Below are positions 1 through 7,901 of a stretch of DNA of 10,930 bases, one piece after another. The translations under genes and the position numbers were made by a program. Each line of letters starts with the position of its first letter. Position 1 is the stretch's first letter. Location: IMG/VR virus record IMGVR_UViG_2531839666_000021, positions 1 through 10,930 of that record. One strand, given 5' to 3'. Under the pieces are notes generated by a model that worked only from the letters and a program-made list of their open reading frames with translations, was not told the DNA's origin and did no database searches. Source of the DNA: a virus (Duplodnaviria > Heunggongvirae > Uroviricota > Caudoviricetes).

Positions 1-2087
1 ATGTTTGCTTCAGTTAAAGAGCTGGTTGGATTACCGGGAATGCCGGGAACGGAGCAAGGCGTCCGCTATTCAATCAGGAAGTATGCAACCAGCGAAACCA
101 GCAGACGCCGCCAGGAAGGCAGTAAAGGTTTTGAATACAGCATCGACTGTTTACCTGAAGTGACGCAGCAGGCATTACGTGAACGCTACGCCCTGCAACT
201 GATGACTCAAAAAGTCGATGAATCACCGGCTCCAGTGGTGACAAAGGCCAGACGCTCGCCTGCCGTGGTTGATGCGGTGGAGGCATATCGCGGATCACCA
301 CAACTGATGGTTGAACGCCTTAATGCCCTGACCGAAAAACAGCGTCAGGTGGCTGATGCACGCATTGCGATTGTCAGCGAGGTGCTGAAATTCGCGCAAC
401 AACCCGGTTTCAGCTGCGCTAAAGCCATCCGTTTTATCGTTGACCGCCTGTCACGCTCACAACTGGACGAGCGCATTGTGGCAATGGTTGAGACGGCGAA
501 CGCCAAAAAGGGAAACCGACGAGCGTTGAGTGAAATCACGCTGAAACGCTGGATTGCGGCCTTTAACAAGGCACAGAACGCCGCTGAACGCCTGCTTTTA
601 CTGGCACCGGGTAAACGCCAGGAAATAAAAGCCGAAGATATTAACTGGCTGCCCGATTTTCTGGCGCAGTATCGCCAGTCAAACGGCCGACCAATGACCG
701 AGGCTTACGAGGATTTTGTTGCCGAATGGCAGCACCGGCACGCTGATGAGCCTTATATGCTCGATATCATGCCGTCTTACGACACCATCCGCCGCGCAAT
801 GAAGAAACTGCCGGAAGTGGTGAAACAAAAAGGCCGGGTGACAGGCAGTGAATACCGTCAGCTTGAGGGATTCACGCGCCGCGACTGGTCAAAAATGCCG
901 GTGAATTATGTCTGGATTGGTGACGGTCACGGCATGAAGCTGAAATGCGCACACCCGGTTCACGGTCGGCCATTTGCACCGGAAGTGACCTTTGTTATCG
1001 ACGGTGGCACGCGCTTTGTGGTGGGCTGGAGCCTTGACCTGGCTGAAAATGTTTTCGCCGTAGCCGGTGCCATACAGCACGGCATTCGCCATCACGGCAA
1101 ACGTTTCTGTATTACTCGGATAACGGCTCCGGGGAAACCGCCGACATCCTGGATAAGGAGGTTGTGGGGATACTGCCGCGACTGGGGATTAATCACCCGA
1201 CCGGGATTGCCGGTAATCCGCAGGGACGAGGCATTATCGAACGGCTTAACCGCACATTACCGATGCGCATAGCCCGTAAATACCGCACCTATTTCGGGAA
1301 AGGTGCAGATCGCGAGACGTTACGCAAAACCAACCGCGATTTACGCTCGGCATTTACTGCCCTGCAACAGGGCAAACGGCTGAACGCCCGGCAGCAGTCA
1401 GCGATGCGTGATTTACCGTCCTGGTCTGAACTGATTGATGCCATTCGTGACGGTGTTGAGTGGTACAACAACCGGCCGCACGATGAATTACCGGTGAAGC
1501 CGAACGGCAAGCATTACAGCCCGGCGGAGTTCAGAAAAAAACGCCTGGCGGAAGAGGACACGGAAATTGAATGGCTGTCCGATGTTGAGCTGCGGGATAT
1601 GTTCCGGCCGATGGTGGAACGCCCTGTAAGACGCTGTGAAATACGCTGGCTGAATAATATTTACTACGCGCCCGAGCTGCGTGATGAGCATGGCCGCAAG
1701 GTGCTTATCAGCTATGACATTCATGATGCCGAACGAATTACCGTACGTCGCCTGGATGGCAGCGTGATTTGCGAGGCGGTATGGGACGGTAATAAACGCG
1801 AAGCCTTCCCGGTTAGCGCGGAATACTACAAACAGCAGCAACGCCTTAAAGGCATGCGTAAACGCGCAGAGGAAAAAATCCGTGATGCCGAGGATGAGGT
1901 TGTCAACGTGCTGGAGCACAAGCCGCAGGAGCCCTGGCTGGAAAACATCTATCGCCCGGTAGGTAATACGGTGGCCGTTCAGCAACCTGCCGTTGATGAT
2001 GAGCCTGATGAAGAATACGAGCGCAATTTCCAGCGGGGATTGCAGTTGCTCGAAGCGAAATTAAAAGAAAATGACCCGCTGGCCTGA
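1..2087 (+). CDS. Mu-type DDE transposase (MuA-like); reading frame interrupted by a 1-bp frameshift near 1087-1091 (pseudogene or sequencing indel)
   Basis: Frame-1 ORF 1-1272 plus frame-3 reading open from 1047 (track ORF 1164-2087, GTG). N-terminus MFASVKELVGLPGMPGT resembles the MuA N-terminal region. Candidate DDE residues are split across frames: VWIGDGHG (frame 1), YYSDNGSGE (frame 3, about 1110-1136), GIIERLNRTL (frame 3). C-terminal RLDGSVICEA...EYYKQQQRLK resembles the MuA C-terminal domain. Frame switch is required between HGI (1078-1086) and PSRQ (1089-1100). Confidence 0.85.
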
Positions 2088-2157
2088 AATAAAAAATAAC
2101 CCGAGCGGCGACTCAGGTTATTTGATTAAACAAGGTATCAAATGAGAGGTTAATAAT

Positions 2158-3091
2158 ATGACTGATATTAACGATGTAATCAAGACCATTGATGAACTTA
2201 TTGATGGCGGCGTACTGACGCAGTATGCCATCGCCAGAGAGGCGGGAATTTCCGACGGCACATTATCGGCTTTCCGCAAGGGGAAATATAAAGGCGATAA
2301 CGCCGCTGTGGCTGCTTCCCTGCGTTCCTGGTATGAGAACTGGAATAAACAAAGCGCACTGCCGGAACCGCCGCAGTTTGTGGAAACGCAGACAGTTCAG
2401 GAGCTGCGCGCACTGTTTCAGGCGGTTCGCCTGATGGGCTGTATTAACGTCATTGTGGGCGTGCCGGGGGTAGGTAAAAACGGCCACCGCCCGTAATTAC
2501 TGCCAGGAGCAACCAAACACCTGGATGATCACCCTGTCACCCGCGCACTCCAGCGTCACGGAGTGTCTGCTGGAGCTGGCCGATGCGCTGGGGATTGATT
2601 ACACCCGCGCGAACAAAGGGGCATTATCCCGCGCCATCCGCCGTCGCCTGATGGGAACGCGTGGACTGGTGATTGTGGATGAGGCGGATCATCTTGGTAT
2701 TGACGGTCTGGAGCAACTCCGGGCAATTCAGGACGCCACGGGGATCGGGATGGTGCTTATTGGTAACCCGCGCGGATTGTTTAAAGGTGGACGCCGCGCC
2801 TTTGATGATTTATCGCGCCTGTTCAGCCGTCTTGCCCGTACAAAACAACTTCGCAAGGCCAAAAAGGCGGATGTGCTGGCCATTGCCAGGGCATGGGGTA
2901 TCAGTGGTGAGGCCGAGCTGGCCGTCATGCAGGCTATCGCTGAAAAGCCGGGAGCGTTACGCGTTCTGACACATACGCTTAACCAGGCGTGGCTCACCGC
3001 CAGCGGTGAAGGTGCGGCGCTGACAGAAAAACATATTAATGCGGCCTTTAAAGAGGTTTATACCAACCCTGAATTACTCTCACAGGTGTGA
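2158..3091 (+). CDS. MuB-like AAA+ ATPase (transposition target-DNA activator B); frameshifted at A5 run 2476-2480
   Basis: RBS GAGAGG 2144-2149, ATG 2158. Frame-1 ORF 2158-2496 ends GVPGVGK-NGHRP*; frame 2 continues KTATARNY...WMITLSP to stop at 3091. The joined product has Walker A GVPGVGKT and Walker B LVIVDEADHL and resembles MuB over its N-terminus and core. Confidence 0.85.
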
Positions 3092-3315
3092 TTATGGCGG
3101 TATTTTATATTCCTGATATTTACGGACGCTTTTACCTGGTTAATTTCGATAACGTGAAGGTGATTTCACTGGCCGAAAATAAAGAATGTGGCGATTTACT
3201 TTTTGAATTTAATGACCGCACACGAATGGTGATATCTGCCGGACTTGATCGCGAAGGTGCGACAGAAGTTTACAGCGGAATATGCCGTTCTGTTGGTGCG
3301 AAACAAGTCAGCTAA
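3088..3315 (+). CDS. small hypothetical protein (73-75 aa) immediately downstream of B; occupies the position of kil in Mu
   Basis: ORF with GTG 3088 or ATG 3094, overlapping the B stop (3089-3091); AGGTG at 3084-3088. No recognisable motif; the Kil suggestion is positional only. Confidence 0.5.
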   Translation: MIMAVFYIPDIYGRFYLVNFDNVKVISLAENKECGDLLFEFNDRTRMVISAGLDREGATEVYSGICRSVGAKQVS

Positions 3316-3327
3316 ATGAGGTGTTAT

Positions 3328-3429
3328 ATGAATATGCAATCCTGCGGTAACAAAATGAATTTATTCGACTCCCTGAACAGCGCGCGCCGTCTGACCGAAC
3401 TTGCCGGTGCGGTACTGGAAACGCAGTAA
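3328..3429 (+). CDS. very small hypothetical ORF (33 aa)
   Basis: ATG 3328 preceded by GAGGTG 3318-3323; product MNMQSCGNKMNLFDSLNSARRLTELAGAVLETQ. May be part of a longer frameshifted gene together with the frame-2 reading 3377-3580. Confidence 0.3.
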   Translation: MNMQSCGNKMNLFDSLNSARRLTELAGAVLETQ

Positions 3430-3581
3430 GCGCTACCACACGTTTTGCACTGAAACCACGCCGCCGGTAGGCAACGTGCAGGGAACCGGTGAAATTGAAA
3501 TCACCATACAGACCAACGGCCTGCGCCGCCGTGTGAAGGCCACCCGCATCAGCGGCTGCACGGTTTACTGGGAGGTGTGAG

Positions 3582-3863
3582 GTGAAAAAAAATCTCATTG
3601 CATGGGCGTGGTCGAGTGGTCTTATTGAGTTTGGTTACGTCCTGCCGGAAGGTGCATTGCCGATAGTTGCCGGAAAGCCTGCCACGGTACGGCATGTGAT
3701 TGAGGTTATGGCGCGTCATGGACGTGATGAACAGGAGCAGTTACTGGTTCCGGGGATACCGGAAGCGGTGACGGAGGAAGAAGCCTTTAATGCCATGATT
3801 CGGTTCTGCCGTGAGGTCAGACGCCGGGTCAGTTATCCAAACAGAACGAGGACCAGAGGATGA
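3582..3863 (+). CDS. hypothetical protein (93 aa)
   Basis: GTG 3582 with GGAGG 3571-3575 at a 6-nt spacer; stop overlaps the next start (ATGA at 3860-3863). Confidence 0.55.
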   Translation: MKKNLIAWAWSSGLIEFGYVLPEGALPIVAGKPATVRHVIEVMARHGRDEQEQLLVPGIPEAVTEEEAFNAMIRFCREVRRRVSYPNRTRTRG

Positions 3864-4132
3864 GTAAAGTCGTACGCATTATTTTCGAATACAAGGAGCA
3901 CGTTATCCATAAAAACGCTGATGGAACAGTGCGCATGGGGGTAAGTCTGGACATACGTTCAACCGGGATAAAGCAGAAAGGTGATGGACCCGCCATGATT
4001 TTTGGAGTGGTTATGCTCGCGGAAAGCAGAGACTTTGCTGAACTTGTGGCAATGAAAGCCAGAGCGCTCATGAAAGATATGAACATGAGTTCCGGGGTTA
4101 TTAAAGGTAATGAATTTAATCAGCAGGGGTAA
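3860..4132 (+). CDS. hypothetical protein (90 aa), member of a tandem paralog pair
   Basis: ATG 3860 in an ATGA overlap with the upstream stop; RBS AGAGG 3855-3859. N-terminus MSKVVRIIFEYKEH is shared with the next ORF. Confidence 0.55.
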   Translation: MSKVVRIIFEYKEHVIHKNADGTVRMGVSLDIRSTGIKQKGDGPAMIFGVVMLAESRDFAELVAMKARALMKDMNMSSGVIKGNEFNQQG

Positions 4133-4136
4133 TTCC

Positions 4137-4430
4137 ATGAGCAAAGTACGCGTTATTTTTGAATTTGAGCATGTTTCGCATGACGAAAAACCGGCAGGCA
4201 ATGACAGTGTTGAAGTGCATGAAAAGATTGGAGTGGATGTGAAAACAGAACGTGATACGGATAACAGGCCGACGTCACTCTGTGACGTTTATGCAAGCAT
4301 TCTCCAGTATCACAGTCCTGTAATTATTCAGTTTCTCTCAGCGGAATTTCAGGCATCTGTACAGGCTTTTGGGGCGGATGCCATCATTAAACGCCACCGC
4401 GTGCATAAAGCATCAGGCACACTGCAATAA
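4137..4430 (+). CDS. hypothetical protein (97 aa), paralog of 3860-4132
   Basis: ATG 4137 (the track ORF starts at 4110, but ATG 4137 follows the upstream stop at 4130-4132 and a G-rich RBS 4126-4129). N-terminus MSKVRVIFEFEH. Confidence 0.55.
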   Translation: MSKVRVIFEFEHVSHDEKPAGNDSVEVHEKIGVDVKTERDTDNRPTSLCDVYASILQYHSPVIIQFLSAEFQASVQAFGADAIIKRHRVHKASGTLQ

Positions 4431-4440
4431 GGAAAACAAA

Positions 4441-4970
4441 ATGGCTAAACGTGTTACAAAATTAAAGGCCGCAGCCGAGGCTGCACCGCAGACCCGTGAA
4501 GAGGTCAGCCGCGATATCCGCACCCTGGGCGATATTCAGCGAGAGGCGCTGCGCCTGGAAACAGCGATGAATGATGAAGTGGCAGAAATCACCGCCCGTT
4601 ATACGCCGCAGATTGAAAACCTTAAAAAGAAATCAAAGTGCTTTTTAAGGGGATTCAGGACTGGTGCAAAACCAACCGTGATGAGCTGACGAACGGCGGC
4701 AAAACCAAAACTGCCAATCTGACCACCGGAACGGTGTCATGGCGACTGGGGAATCCATCATGCAGCGTCAGTCGTGATGTGGAAGGTGTGATTGAAATGC
4801 TGCGCCGTATGGGGCTTGAGCGATTCATCCGCACGAAAGAGGAAGTGAACAAGGAAGCCGTCCTGGCGGAGCCGGATGCGGTGAAAGGCATTGCCGGTAT
4901 AAAGGTGAATAAAGGCGCTGAAAGTTTTTATGTCGAGCCTTTTGAACAGGACGCCGGACTGAATAAATAA
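4441..4970 (+). CDS. gam: host-nuclease inhibitor protein Gam (Mu Gam family); frameshifted near 4624-4629
   Basis: RBS AAGGA 4429-4433, ATG 4441. Frame-1 part MAKRVTKLKAAAEA...LRLETAMNDEVAEIT and frame-3 part (from 4626) KEIKVLFKGIQDWCKTNRDELTNGGKTKTANL...FIRTKEEVNKEA...PFEQDAGL both match the Mu Gam pattern as I recall it; the join requires one extra base in the A5/G run 4624-4629. Confidence 0.85.
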
Positions 4971-5067
4971 CACCACATTAAATCTTTAAATATCACATCG
5001 TTTTAATTATGGCGCTCGCGTCAGGGGACTGCCTGCGCCTGAAAGCTGAAAATAAGGAATCGGAAAC

Positions 5068-5610
5068 ATGGCATATTTTTATTTCAAATTAGACATAGTG
5101 TACACAAATAAATATTTCACCGAATATCAGCGGGATGTTTTACCGCTACGCAACAGTATTCTTCGGGCATTACTGAAAAATACAGGCGCTGCCGGATTGC
5201 GCTTAAAGCCGTTCGCCATGGACGTAATCAGTGAGTTTTATTTTTCTGGTTCTCTGCCTGCGGGCTGGCGTAAGCGCGATGATGTGGCTTTTATCGGGGA
5301 CGGACCGTGCTTTATTGCCAGACCTGATGAGTTATGCCCTGAAGGACCGGCGATTGCCGCAATGGTTGAAGCCGCTGAACGCGATTTAAGAAAGCATCCT
5401 GATTTCCTTGTCTGGCTCTGTGAAAAGCTGGGGGTAATGAGAATCCCCTCCATGTTTAACACGGACTCCTGGTGGACCCCTTCGTTCTCCCGTGATGCCC
5501 TGTGCGTGGTGTTTAAAGTGGGCGCTTATGGCAGGGAAATAAACGGGTGTATTCCTGAAGAATGCCAGGAAATTAAACATTCTGAATATGTGGCGCTGAC
5601 GGAGGAATAA
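5068..5610 (+). CDS. hypothetical protein (180 aa)
   Basis: ATG 5068 with AAGGA 5054-5058; strongly AT-rich 5' end; no recognisable motif. Confidence 0.5.
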   Translation: MAYFYFKLDIVYTNKYFTEYQRDVLPLRNSILRALLKNTGAAGLRLKPFAMDVISEFYFSGSLPAGWRKRDDVAFIGDGPCFIARPDELCPEGPAIAAMVEAAERDLRKHPDFLVWLCEKLGVMRIPSMFNTDSWWTPSFSRDALCVVFKVGAYGREINGCIPEECQEIKHSEYVALTEE

Positions 5611-5620
5611 TTCATGATTG

Positions 5621-6145
5621 ATGCAAAAGTGCTTGAGGGTTAAAAACTGGCTGCGTATTTACGGACGTCTGACCTGCGGCATTCTGGCTGAAAAAATGAA
5701 TATGCCGCCATCCTCGATGGTTTATTTTCTGCGTGATGCGGTCGATGCCGGGGTGCTGACGGAATGTAACGGTTTTTATGATATTCCGCGTCCCCGCCCG
5801 GTGCAGCCGGTTCGTCGCAAATGCAGCCAGGAAGGTGCGGCTGATGATGTTCAGTGGTGCAGCTTCAGAAAGTCCCTGCCGTGGATTGAGGGGCATGATA
5901 TTCCGTCGATGGCGTGGGAATTTGCTCAGGGCGTACTGACCTGCGAAACCGTTTATGTGGTGGCTGAAGTTGATGAGCAGGCCATGAAAGAAGGTGTACC
6001 CCAGTTTGTGATGGCGTATATCGACATACGCCTGGGTGTCATTATCTGCGGTTTAAGCGGCTGGAATATCACCGGACATGTTCTGCGTTACCTGATTGTT
6101 GACCGGACGGCTGCACCTGCCGGGATATCTGCGGAGGTGGCGTAA
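5621..6145 (+). CDS. hypothetical protein (about 174 aa) with a possible winged-helix-like N-terminus
   Basis: Frame-3 ORF, TTG 5618 or ATG 5621. N-terminal segment LRIYGRLTCGILAEKMNMPPSSMVYFLRDAVDAGVLTE looks HTH-like. The start is uncertain (see finding on the SD at 5601-5606). Confidence 0.5.
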   Translation: MQKCLRVKNWLRIYGRLTCGILAEKMNMPPSSMVYFLRDAVDAGVLTECNGFYDIPRPRPVQPVRRKCSQEGAADDVQWCSFRKSLPWIEGHDIPSMAWEFAQGVLTCETVYVVAEVDEQAMKEGVPQFVMAYIDIRLGVIICGLSGWNITGHVLRYLIVDRTAAPAGISAEVA

Positions 6146-6660
6146 TGTTCTTTAAAACATCAAACCCTTCCGCGCTGGCTGCGTGGCAAAAATACCAGCA
6201 GGACTACAAGAAAGTTAAGGATGAGGCAAAACGTCTTGAGGCCGTGCTGAATGTTGATTGTCGGTCGGTATTTGTATCCGGTATCAATGGTTTTTATTTT
6301 AAAGGACTGCGTTTTACGGATAACAAATATCCTTTTCATCGCGACTTATGGCGAAAACCGACTGCGTCGAATGGCTGGAGCTGCACGCCGCGCACATCGT
6401 GTATTCCCAAAGCCCTGTGCGCTGCCTCTGACGAACTTAACAGTCTGTGGCGTGAATATTCGCCCGTCACGTATGCCAGAACCGATGCCCTGTTGTTCTG
6501 GCTGGGTATTGATTTCTCGGCAATCCTGTTTGGCCCTGTGGAGTGGTTCTGCGTTGACGATGTGATTTACCTTCAGTGCGGCGTAAAACCCGCAAAACAG
6601 AAAATGACCGAAATTCTGTCTGATGAGTTTTATGCTGCTGAAAAGCGAGTCAGGGGGTGA
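6145..6660 (+). CDS. hypothetical protein (171 aa)
   Basis: ATG 6145 overlaps the upstream stop by 1 nt (TAATG); no recognisable motif. Confidence 0.5.
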   Translation: MFFKTSNPSALAAWQKYQQDYKKVKDEAKRLEAVLNVDCRSVFVSGINGFYFKGLRFTDNKYPFHRDLWRKPTASNGWSCTPRTSCIPKALCAASDELNSLWREYSPVTYARTDALLFWLGIDFSAILFGPVEWFCVDDVIYLQCGVKPAKQKMTEILSDEFYAAEKRVRG

Positions 6661-6663
6661 TGT

Positions 6664-7215
6664 ATGATGATTTTACAACCCATGGGGAGAAAAGGCCGTG
6701 CACCCGCTCATGTCCGTGCGTGGACACCTGAAGAAGATGCACTGCTGATTGCGCTTTATCCATCCACCCCGGTTAAGGATATTGCTGTCAGGGTAAAAAG
6801 AAGTTTCTGGGGTGTACATAACCGGATTGTTTTATTACGCGGTACTTACCCGGAGTTGCTCAAATGCAAACGTCCAAGATTTAAACATGATGAAGATAAA
6901 TTTATCCGAAAAAATGCCAGAACGATGACCGGTAAGCAAATAGGAGAATATCTGGGGCGAGACCGGGATTCTGTCCACAAACGGGCGCGATATATTGGCG
7001 TAAGCATGAAAAAATACGGAGAGTTGCTGCCCTTCACCCGTATACCTGATGATGATGTTCATCTTATTCGTGAATTACGGGATGCTGAATCACCACGACG
7101 TCTTACCTTCCGGGAAATAGGCGAGAAATTTGAATTATCCGAGAGTACGGTGAATTTTATTTATCACCATCGCCGGACTGCCGAAGATGTTGTATTACGG
7201 GAGTTAATGCCATGA
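6664..7215 (+). CDS. putative DNA-binding protein with repeated Myb/SANT-like or GcrA-like HTH motifs
   Basis: RBS GGGGG 6654-6658, ATG 6664. Motifs AWTPEEDALLIALY, MTGKQIGEYLGRDRDSVHKRARYIGVS and LTFREIGEKFELSESTVNFIYHHRR. First gene of the AT-rich island. Confidence 0.55.
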   Translation: MMILQPMGRKGRAPAHVRAWTPEEDALLIALYPSTPVKDIAVRVKRSFWGVHNRIVLLRGTYPELLKCKRPRFKHDEDKFIRKNARTMTGKQIGEYLGRDRDSVHKRARYIGVSMKKYGELLPFTRIPDDDVHLIRELRDAESPRRLTFREIGEKFELSESTVNFIYHHRRTAEDVVLRELMP

Positions 7216-7427
7216 TAACGACATTATTTGTTGAATCAGACGAGCCTCTGGTATGTGCCGCCGGAATGTCGGTTTGTGGCGGAACGCTGACCGGTGTTTA
7301 TTTCGGGGATTTGCGCGGTTATCCCTGGCATTCACTGGATGACGCATTTCCGCCTGATATGGAGGCAGTCGTGCTGATTGTTCAGTATGGTGCAACAGGA
7401 ACTGCGCATCGGCCATATGGGGTATGA
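7212..7427 (+). CDS. hypothetical protein (71 aa as given; probably 103 aa, 7212-7521, if one G is removed from the G4 run at 7419-7422)
   Basis: ATG 7212 in an ATGA overlap with the upstream stop. Frame 1 continues from about 7417 to the stop at 7519-7521, which would create an ATGA overlap with ATG 7518. Confidence 0.45.
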   Translation: MITTLFVESDEPLVCAAGMSVCGGTLTGVYFGDLRGYPWHSLDDAFPPDMEAVVLIVQYGATGTAHRPYGV

Positions 7428-7493
7428 AGGCTTTTTTATTGATGAAGAAACCGGAGCCTGCCTTGAAGATGAGGACGGACAGGTGACGCACTG

Positions 7494-7901
7494 GTGCCAT
7501 ATTTCAGCTTTACCGGAATGACGGGAGGTGAATGCGTGAGAAGTTATATTGATAATGAAAAACTGAAGACAATCAGCGACTGTCTTAGCTTGCTGGCAAA
7601 AATAAAAGAAACCATTGAAGAGATTAAATTTCAGCTTGAATACGCACCCTGTGGTGATGATACATGGCGTAACTCTGCCAGAAAAGCACTGGCTGTCTTT
7701 CAGAAACAACGCCGGACTGTTGAATACCGCCTTGCTGTATTACGCCAGGAGGAAAAGGAAAGAAATATAAGATGTCACGAGCGCGTTAATAACTTCCTTG
7801 TTCGTGAATTAAAGAACGTGTGCCGGAGTCGGTATTTTTTGAGTGTGAGGCTGTTGCCCGTAGCAAAGCACTGGAAACTGATTAAACAGGCAGGTGAATG
7901 A
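7494..7901 (+). CDS. hypothetical protein, predicted coiled-coil-rich (122-135 aa depending on start)
   Basis: Frame-3 ORF; candidate starts GTG 7494 (SD AGGTGA 7481-7486), ATG 7518 (ATGA coupling if the upstream frameshift is corrected) or GTG 7536 (SD GGGAGG 7523-7528). AT-rich. Confidence 0.5.
   Translation: MPYFSFTGMTGGECVRSYIDNEKLKTISDCLSLLAKIKETIEEIKFQLEYAPCGDDTWRNSARKALAVFQKQRRTVEYRLAVLRQEEKERNIRCHERVNNFLVRELKNVCRSRYFLSVRLLPVAKHWKLIKQAGE

Follow-up and report, generated by a model that had tools for sequence, protein, structure and literature searches.

Three early genes behind gam in an Escherichia coli Mu-like prophage: homologs of Mu gp11 and gp12 preceded by a divergent DUF5420 protein

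Homologs of Mu gp11 and gp12 downstream of gam

We analyzed a stretch of 10,930 nt (positions 1 to 10,930 of IMG/VR virus record IMGVR_UViG_2531839666_000021; hereafter "the window") that represents the early region of an Escherichia coli Mu-like transposable prophage. All long open reading frames (ORFs) of the window are found on the plus strand in the order transposase A, B, small early genes, gam, ORF1 to ORF3, more small genes, gemA, mor, and endolysin. Our subject is the block of three ORFs behind gam, for which a first-pass annotation made from the DNA letters alone had seen no recognizable family. Contrary to that view, each of the three falls into a family (PHROG E values of the order of 1e-71 to 1e-101), and the block, composed of the catalogued, uncharacterized genes gp11 (ORF2) and gp12 (ORF3) plus a distant extra copy of gp12 (ORF1), is nothing unusual for the dispensable early region. 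As to function, the best explanation overall, which we hold to be probable though far from certain, is that the block encodes dispensable, non-enzymatic early accessory proteins, with gp11 as a DNA binder and its two neighbors as binding modules.

Profile and alignment scores identify ORF2 as a homolog of Mu gp11 (Mup11, NP_050615; PF25754; PHROG 1949). It matched Pfam Gp11_C (PF25754, Phage Mu Gp11 C-terminal domain) with 137.2 bits against a cut-off of 27 (E 2.4e-40), the match spanning residues 88-165 of the protein and positions 1-78 of the 78 in the profile; it also matched phrog_1949 at 6e-101 and aligned collinearly with the whole of Mu gp11 (68% identity, E 4e-78). Besides Gp11_C, the likeness to Mu gp11 comprises the N-terminus MIDAKVL.GV of intact relatives and the position after gam, with the difference that in Mu gp11 comes straight after the gam gap while a DUF5420-like gene is interposed in the window. 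The probable layout of the protein is a putative N-terminal winged helix, a Pro/Arg-rich linker, and the Gp11_C domain. An N-terminus resembling a helix-turn-helix (HTH) had already been noted for ORF2, and weak, consistent sub-threshold Pfam matches agree with it, with none above threshold: Among 34 gp11 members, these matches fell exclusively into winged-helix/HTH families (HTH_20 in 5, best E 0.012; PCI in 4; WH4_Lhr in 3; HTH_CodY in 2; HTH_10 in 1).

Unlike Mu gp11, the copy in the window is cut off from its normal start, owing to the loss of 2 nt at 5637 (GAAGGGG to GAGGG), and the start at 5621 proposed by the first-pass annotation is wrong. In alignments, the family start MIDAKVLEGV... 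falls on the ATG at 5614, and the same N-terminus is present in Mu, SfMu, and E. coli O157; the deletion throws this ATG out of frame so that a stop follows after 9 codons. The TTG at 5618 or ATG at 5621 is therefore an out-of-frame surrogate start that makes the first ca. 7 residues spurious, while the rest of gp11 is intact. None of 120 related loci (0/120) has the 5637 deletion.

ORF3 is likewise identified by its alignments as a homolog of Mu gp12 (Mup12, NP_050616; PF26885; PHROG 2314), with 54% identity over 169 of 171 residues (E 7e-67) and a match to phrog_2314 at 2e-83. Since PF26885 is newer than the Pfam release that we used, ORF3 is linked to it via annotated relatives: The 46 relatives of ORF3 in a collection of 5.8 billion proteins, 90%-identical ones included, all have a precomputed PF26885 annotation (46/46). 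Just like Mu gp12, ORF3 is the gene directly following gp11, and its start codon overlaps the stop codon of gp11. Compared to Mu, it is more diverged than gp11, and the next gene encodes a D5-like HTH protein where Mu has gp13 and gp14. ORF2 and ORF3 thus show clear homology to conserved proteins of the Mu semi-essential early (SEE) region downstream of gam, which is where the first-pass annotation had rightly placed the block.

A divergent DUF5420 protein as first gene of the block

ORF1 has no counterpart in Mu. It matched phrog_2260 (PHROG 2260; 6e-71) and aligned end to end with SfMu gp11, a "DUF5420 family protein" (YP_009152197), at 39% identity (E 3e-42). Against the Pfam DUF5420 profile (PF17457), it stayed below the cut-off (11.9 versus 26 bits, E 0.2), as did its whole close clade including proteins that NCBI names "DUF5420 family protein" (best E 0.0075). 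A profile of the ORF1 clade retrieved only 26 clusters from 1.84 billion representative proteins, aligned over positions 1-181 and all composed of single-domain proteins of ca. 180-210 aa, and 19 of these 26 clusters had a DUF5420 match (best E 9.3e-28). ORF1 also retains both termini that form the DUF5420 signature, i.e., an N-terminal YFK and an extreme C-terminal EIK(K/H)SE(F/Y)(I/V)A(L/I)TEE, with YFYFKLD at residues 3-9 and EIKHSEYVALTEE at its own extreme C-terminus. Because the clade profile finds DUF5420 members and the signature termini are kept, we assign ORF1, by sequence comparison, to the DUF5420 superfamily as a divergent member. It shares with SfMu gp11 the place after the gam gap and ahead of the gp11 homolog as well as the C-terminal motif IKHSE(Y/F)VALTEE but is devoid of the basic residues of the central DUF5420 motif (PDRRYKEGK, replaced by PDELCPEGP); together with the sub-cut-off score, this loss places it in a divergent superfamily clade from E. 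coli. The distance between ORF1 and the DUF5420 core explains why our first scans of genome contigs returned no loci; a second scan returned only 3.

Layout, selection, and expression of the block

The coordinates of the block and its surroundings are given in Table 1. Except for the ORF2 start, the three ORFs lie on the plus strand as the first-pass annotation had drawn them (5068-5610, 5621-6145, and 6145-6660), including the 97-nt gap between the end of gam at 4970 and the start of ORF1 at 5068. Its description of the ORFs as coupled is borne out, with a one-base overlap of ORF2 stop and ORF3 start in TAATG (6143-6147) and the next ORF beginning 3 nt past the ORF3 stop. Each start has a good Shine-Dalgarno sequence (AAGGA at 5054-5058 for ORF1, GGAGGA at 5601-5606 for ORF2, and GGAGG at 6133-6137 for ORF3). 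The AT-rich 5' end that it had seen in ORF1 is just as real: With 23.3% GC, the first 60 nt are the lowest 60-mer of the window (0.02% of all 60-mers), which has 51.3% GC overall.

Table 1. Features of the block and its surroundings in the window.
Feature	Position	Strand	Remarks
gam (host-nuclease inhibitor)	4441..4970	+	Pfam Phage_Mu_Gam on both pieces (4e-07, 4e-28)
gam-distal intergenic region	4971..5067	+	97 nt
ORF1	5068..5610	+	180 aa
ORF2, conserved gene extent	5614..6145	+	ATG 5614, MIDAKVL(E/N)GV start; 3 nt after ORF1 stop
ORF2, open frame	5618/5621..6145	+	175/174 aa
ORF3	6145..6660	+	171 aa
Next coupled gene	6664..7215	+	183 aa; phrog_323 (6e-58), "transcriptional regulator, D5-like"
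Indel sites	1102, 2091, 2476, 3419-3453, 4433, 4624, 4982/4985, 5637, 7393, 7817, 8697, 8982, 9196, 9240, 10887		relative to reference prophage

Median ratios of nonsynonymous to synonymous substitution rates (dN/dS) against diverged relatives were 0.44 for ORF1, 0.16 for ORF2, and 0.22 for ORF3, and since all three are under purifying selection, they are genes rather than chance ORFs. ORF1 is the fastest-evolving member of the block, with a dN/dS of ca. 0.5-1.15 among close relatives that is based on about 25 substitutions.

No signal above chance was found for a promoter or terminator of the block's own, neither within nor around it, and the simplest mode of expression is therefore read-through of the early operon combined with translational coupling. 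These data bear on the idea that the block is a lysogen-expressed "moron" protecting the host, be it by superinfection exclusion or as a defense system. While its genes are indeed prophage-borne and variable, a same-strand, tightly coupled position in a repressor-controlled early operon without own promoter or terminator speaks against such a role, as does the failure of ORF1-3 to match anything in PADLOC at E values up to 1, and we consider it highly improbable.

ORF1 and ORF3 as probable remote paralogs flanking gp11

In a profile-profile comparison with hhalign, a deeper DUF5420 alignment and the gp12 family were collinear over 159 columns (score 24.8, E 0.0034), and this score exceeded all of 200 column shuffles (mean 13.0, standard deviation 2.3, maximum 20.5) as well as a reversed control. 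With the ORF1 clade left out, the DUF5420 core reached a score of 25.6 against gp12, above 100 of 100 shuffles (null maximum 21.0), and both alignments covered 157-159 columns. Predicted secondary structures laid under the sequence-only alignment agreed at 73% of 157 positions, compared to 15-48% at shifted registers. The AlphaFold2 (AF2) models of ORF1 (predicted local distance difference test [pLDDT] 94.6, confident) and ORF3 (pLDDT 80.2, fair) run through nearly the same order of elements, from a beta strand and a long helix via a beta hairpin and a variable insert to a pair of helices, which are followed by three strands and a last helix at the C-terminus. Conserved motifs of DUF5420 and gp12 correspond as well (YFKxD with FFKTS, LG with LG, and EIKxSEFiAL with EILSDEFYAA), though the probability that hhalign itself assigns to the match is only ca. 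10%. Given a profile match above all shuffles and a shared predicted topology, we view ORF1 and ORF3 as remote paralogs flanking gp11, a relationship that is well supported, if not proven. A paralogy of gp11 with either ORF1 or ORF3 was ruled out (hhalign probability below 0.5%). Joining Mu gp12 with DUF5420 in a single superfamily is a new proposal.

A modular slot around a constant gp11

We sampled IMG/VR loci via ORF1 and, separately, via gp11 and mapped their genes with local hidden Markov models (HMMs); the counts of architectures include redundant contigs. The order in every Mu-like locus was gam, a conserved gap of ca. 98 nt, an optional DUF5420-like gene, gp11, an optional gp12, variable small genes, gemA, and mor. 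The commonest architecture was the full set of DUF5420-like gene, gp11, and gp12 (49 loci), followed by gp11 with gp12 as in Mu (22 loci), a DUF5420-like gene with gp11 (16 loci), gp11 alone (15 loci), and a single locus (L032) with two tandem DUF5420-like genes before gp11 and gp12. Hence gp11 is the constant core of the post-gam slot, consistent with its low dN/dS of 0.16, while both paralogs are individually optional. This description of the post-gam region as modular, with gp11 fixed and the paralogs optional, is new.

Distant DUF5420 proteins were also found in phage contexts other than Mu, where neither gp11 nor gp12 accompanies them. One is encoded between primase and terminase (L040), one near DNA ligase and integrase in a Desulfobotulus metagenome-assembled genome (L118), and one beside baseplate genes in an Izemoplasma prophage (L119); in a Citrobacter braakii Mu-like prophage (L120), a canonical DUF5420 gene is followed by gp11 and gp12. 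Because of these non-Mu contexts, the DUF5420 superfamily is best described as phage-borne and early-region but not tied to transposition. Two stricter rules were ruled out: that gp11 depends in every case on one or the other DUF5420/gp12 paralog, by the 15 loci with gp11 alone, and that DUF5420 always comes together with gp11, by the three non-Mu loci.

Several loci add variations on this slot. The tandem DUF5420-like pair of L032 (IMGVR_UViG_2663762818_000004, 5001-6130) precedes gp11 and gp12, which amounts to three superfamily copies in one phage and is evidence of ongoing duplication in the post-gam slot. In L054, L056, L057, and L080, an ORF of 252 aa (ca. 4467-5225; 3341-4099 in L057) takes the place of gp12 and has a C-terminus matching Mu gp13 (93-94%); the gp12 position is thus taken by either a fusion or a different cargo gene. 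One clade (L032, L034-L037, L116, and L117) keeps the intergenic element described below and the block with no recognizable gam within 1.5 kb upstream, and ca. 700 nt of these loci (ca. 4260-4940 in locus coordinates) have a coding content unmatched by our reference gene set. In SfMu (L003, NC_027382), an unannotated stretch between gp12 and gp13 (7442-7957) harbors a truncated gp12-family ORF at 7602-7970 (HMM E 2e-63), and because of this ORF, we take it for a gp12 remnant or mis-annotated gene that is missing from the record.

A conserved non-coding element ahead of the slot

The intergenic region behind gam, with counterparts at 6326-6423 of Mu (NC_000929) and 6263-6353 of SfMu, contains a strongly conserved non-coding element with its core at 5001-5043 of the window (TTTTAATTATGGCGC...CGTCAGGGGAC...GCGCCTGAA). 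Of 121 sequences examined, 114 have this element, located ca. 68 nt ahead of the first gene of the block irrespective of whether that is DUF5420-like or gp11, and it is absent from the non-Mu DUF5420 loci. A candidate hairpin would pair GGCGC (5011-5015) with GCGCC (5035-5039) and GTC (5020-5022) with GAC (5027-5029). In the alignment, 92.8% of cells are paired, with one compensatory change from C:G to U:A and wobble-compatible changes elsewhere. The element had no match to Rfam, promoters, or terminators, and its RNA folding energy is unexceptional (z -0.52). It could be a protein-binding site (possibly for gp11), a site of RNA processing, or a junction at which modules are exchanged by recombination. 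A conserved non-coding element ahead of the modular slot is likewise new.

The element is also relevant to a different reading of the block as a helper of replication or transposition, according to which gp11, possibly together with gp12, would be "arm" or a similar SEE function that binds phage or host DNA and raises replicative transposition. The arm function (amplified replication of Mu) has been named among SEE functions without an assigned gene (PMC4553209). Such a role would suit gp11 as a constant, strongly constrained, putative DNA binder, with the nearly ubiquitous upstream element of Mu-like loci as a potential binding site. It fits poorly with DUF5420 relatives in non-transposable phages, and the DNA binding of gp11 is itself a prediction. 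That arm maps to this interval at all is our own assumption, which we count against the idea, and on balance, we find an arm-like role improbable, albeit a live rival.

Intactness of the prophage and relatives in E. coli genomes

Near-identical prophages (98.1-98.5% nucleotide identity over the whole 10.9 kb) are present in 249 of the 5426 complete genomes of E. coli, mainly of O157, O111, and other bovine or Shiga toxin-producing E. coli (STEC) strains. The Mu-like prophages of O157:H7, O111, and other STEC share the gene order of the window, but their copies are intact, while the window differs from an intact, 98%-identical E. coli reference prophage by 19 indels of 1-2 nt, mostly changes in homopolymer length (Table 1). 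These indels break A, B, gam, gp11, gemA, and other genes. For example, a 1-nt homopolymer deletion at 4624 splits gam, which is intact with 531 nt in the reference. ORF1 and ORF3 have no indel and no internal stop relative to the reference, and substitutions are few.

Taken at face value, the broken genes and a gp11 deletion seen in the window alone could mean that ORF1-3 are relics of a decaying, non-functional prophage in this sequence, whatever the family does elsewhere. However, indels that mostly alter homopolymer length are a classic signature of sequencing or assembly error, and true decay would not show so strong a bias; the scarcity of substitutions and the clean reading frames of ORF1 and ORF3 point in the same direction, and we regard relics as quite unlikely. 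Because the gp11 deletion is just one of 19 small, mostly homopolymer indels, it and the others are probably due to assembly error or very recent decay, the latter being the less likely of the two. We advise comparing any gene call in the window with the reading frame of the reference.

The block proteins are 90-98% identical to public database entries, and their Pfam and PHROG families exist already, albeit uncharacterized; their counterparts in E. coli prophages are annotated as three consecutive "hypothetical proteins" (e.g., ILQ54_RS18340-18350 of NZ_CP062721). With such annotations in hundreds of E. coli genomes, the genes carry little weight as a discovery. The superfamily link, the modular slot, and the intergenic element do offer handles on the roles of some of the last early genes that are still uncharacterized in a classic model phage.

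What the block proteins might do

As the first-pass annotation had stated, ORF1-3 contain no defensible catalytic motif, and invariant polar residues are few. Searches with the sequences of ORF1-3 and with a gp11 profile retrieved nothing below E 0.4 from the chain sequences of the PDB, no PDB fold match was found for the block proteins, and NCBIfam had no match to ORF1-3. A Foldseek search of BFVD with the ORF1 model gave five significant matches (template modeling [TM] scores of 0.63-0.75), all of them to unnamed phage proteins of similar size; the DUF5420/gp12 fold has no characterized relative. Our literature search found no gene-level role for Mu gp11 or gp12.

Beyond the observed identities, synteny, purifying selection, paralogy, and a gene content that varies while gp11 stays constant, the mechanism that we infer for the block as a set of accessory proteins would run as follows. 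Without a promoter of its own, the block would be transcribed at the onset of lytic growth as a section of the early operon, and its genes would be co-translated via their close or overlapping stop and start signals. None of the three proteins would be an enzyme. The conserved core gp11 would most likely bind DNA through its predicted N-terminal winged helix, with Gp11_C serving as an effector or oligomerization domain. The DUF5420/gp12 paralogs, as small alpha/beta proteins, would most likely bind a host or phage partner and act as exchangeable, dispensable add-ons by which the early steps of lytic development are tuned in certain hosts. Small, variably present, non-enzymatic early accessory proteins that bind host proteins, such as Tip and Aqs1, are encoded by Pseudomonas Mu-like phages in regions of genomic plasticity. 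We invoke them as an analogy for how the block proteins may work and not as members of the same family; we found no relationship in sequence or structure, and no search aimed at one was made.

Several points weigh against this explanation. To speak of binding proteins is to argue from the absence of catalytic features, and the winged helix of gp11 is weakly indicated, by sub-threshold matches of which the best has an E value of 0.012; the gp11 profile also retrieved no HTH protein from PDB sequences. Since gp11 occurs without paralogs and DUF5420 without gp11, they need not cooperate. If the indels of the window were real, its prophage copy would be defective and the block inactive here. Finally, our literature search on DUF5420, Mup11, and Mup12 returned nothing (the matches to "Mup" were mouse genes).

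The first-pass annotation had assigned the block to a slot typical of host-takeover or anti-defense functions, and part of this view is compatible with our data. Gam blocks RecBCD, and an anti-defense module, in which at least one of the three proteins would inhibit a host defense against phages at an early stage of infection, could reside beside gam in the early operon. Paralogs that come and go among closely related phages, with one tandem duplication, a fast-evolving ORF1, small non-enzymatic proteins without cellular homologs, and DUF5420 relatives in early regions of unrelated phages would all suit such a module. What does not agree is that, next to the lack of PADLOC matches, the block proteins resemble no catalogued anti-defense protein: By text match in this one catalogue, PF17457, PF25754, PF26885, DUF5420, and Gp11 are absent from 10 supplementary files of EVADES, a compendium of 268 anti-defense proteins. 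Furthermore, gp11 is strongly conserved, unlike typical arms-race proteins, and the high dN/dS of ORF1 comes from few substitutions. We see an anti-defense module as unlikely on present evidence, yet as a live rival. A broader and equally doubtful proposal is that gp11 and the DUF5420/gp12 superfamily form an undescribed early toolkit for host takeover or counter-defense in transposable and other phages, with gp11 as a DNA-binding core that might act on the upstream element and the fast-evolving, exchangeable paralogs as host-specific inhibitor modules.

Neighboring genes and regulatory layout

The D5-like gene that follows ORF3 (6664-7215) encodes a product with a C-terminal HTH at residues ca. 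131-167, as suggested by several sub-threshold HTH matches in Pfam, and with a weak homing-endonuclease-like match in PADLOC (E 0.0017). Mu lacks a gene in this place; the same PHROG-type label is found on Mu gp9, upstream of gam. At the far end of the early region (9172-10280), the endolysin gene begins only ca. 70 nt after the Mor-family activator, and unlike in Mu, no separate C-type late activator or equivalents of gp18-gp20 lie in between. Because endolysin nearly abuts the activator, the middle/late regulatory layout of this type of prophage differs from that of Mu.

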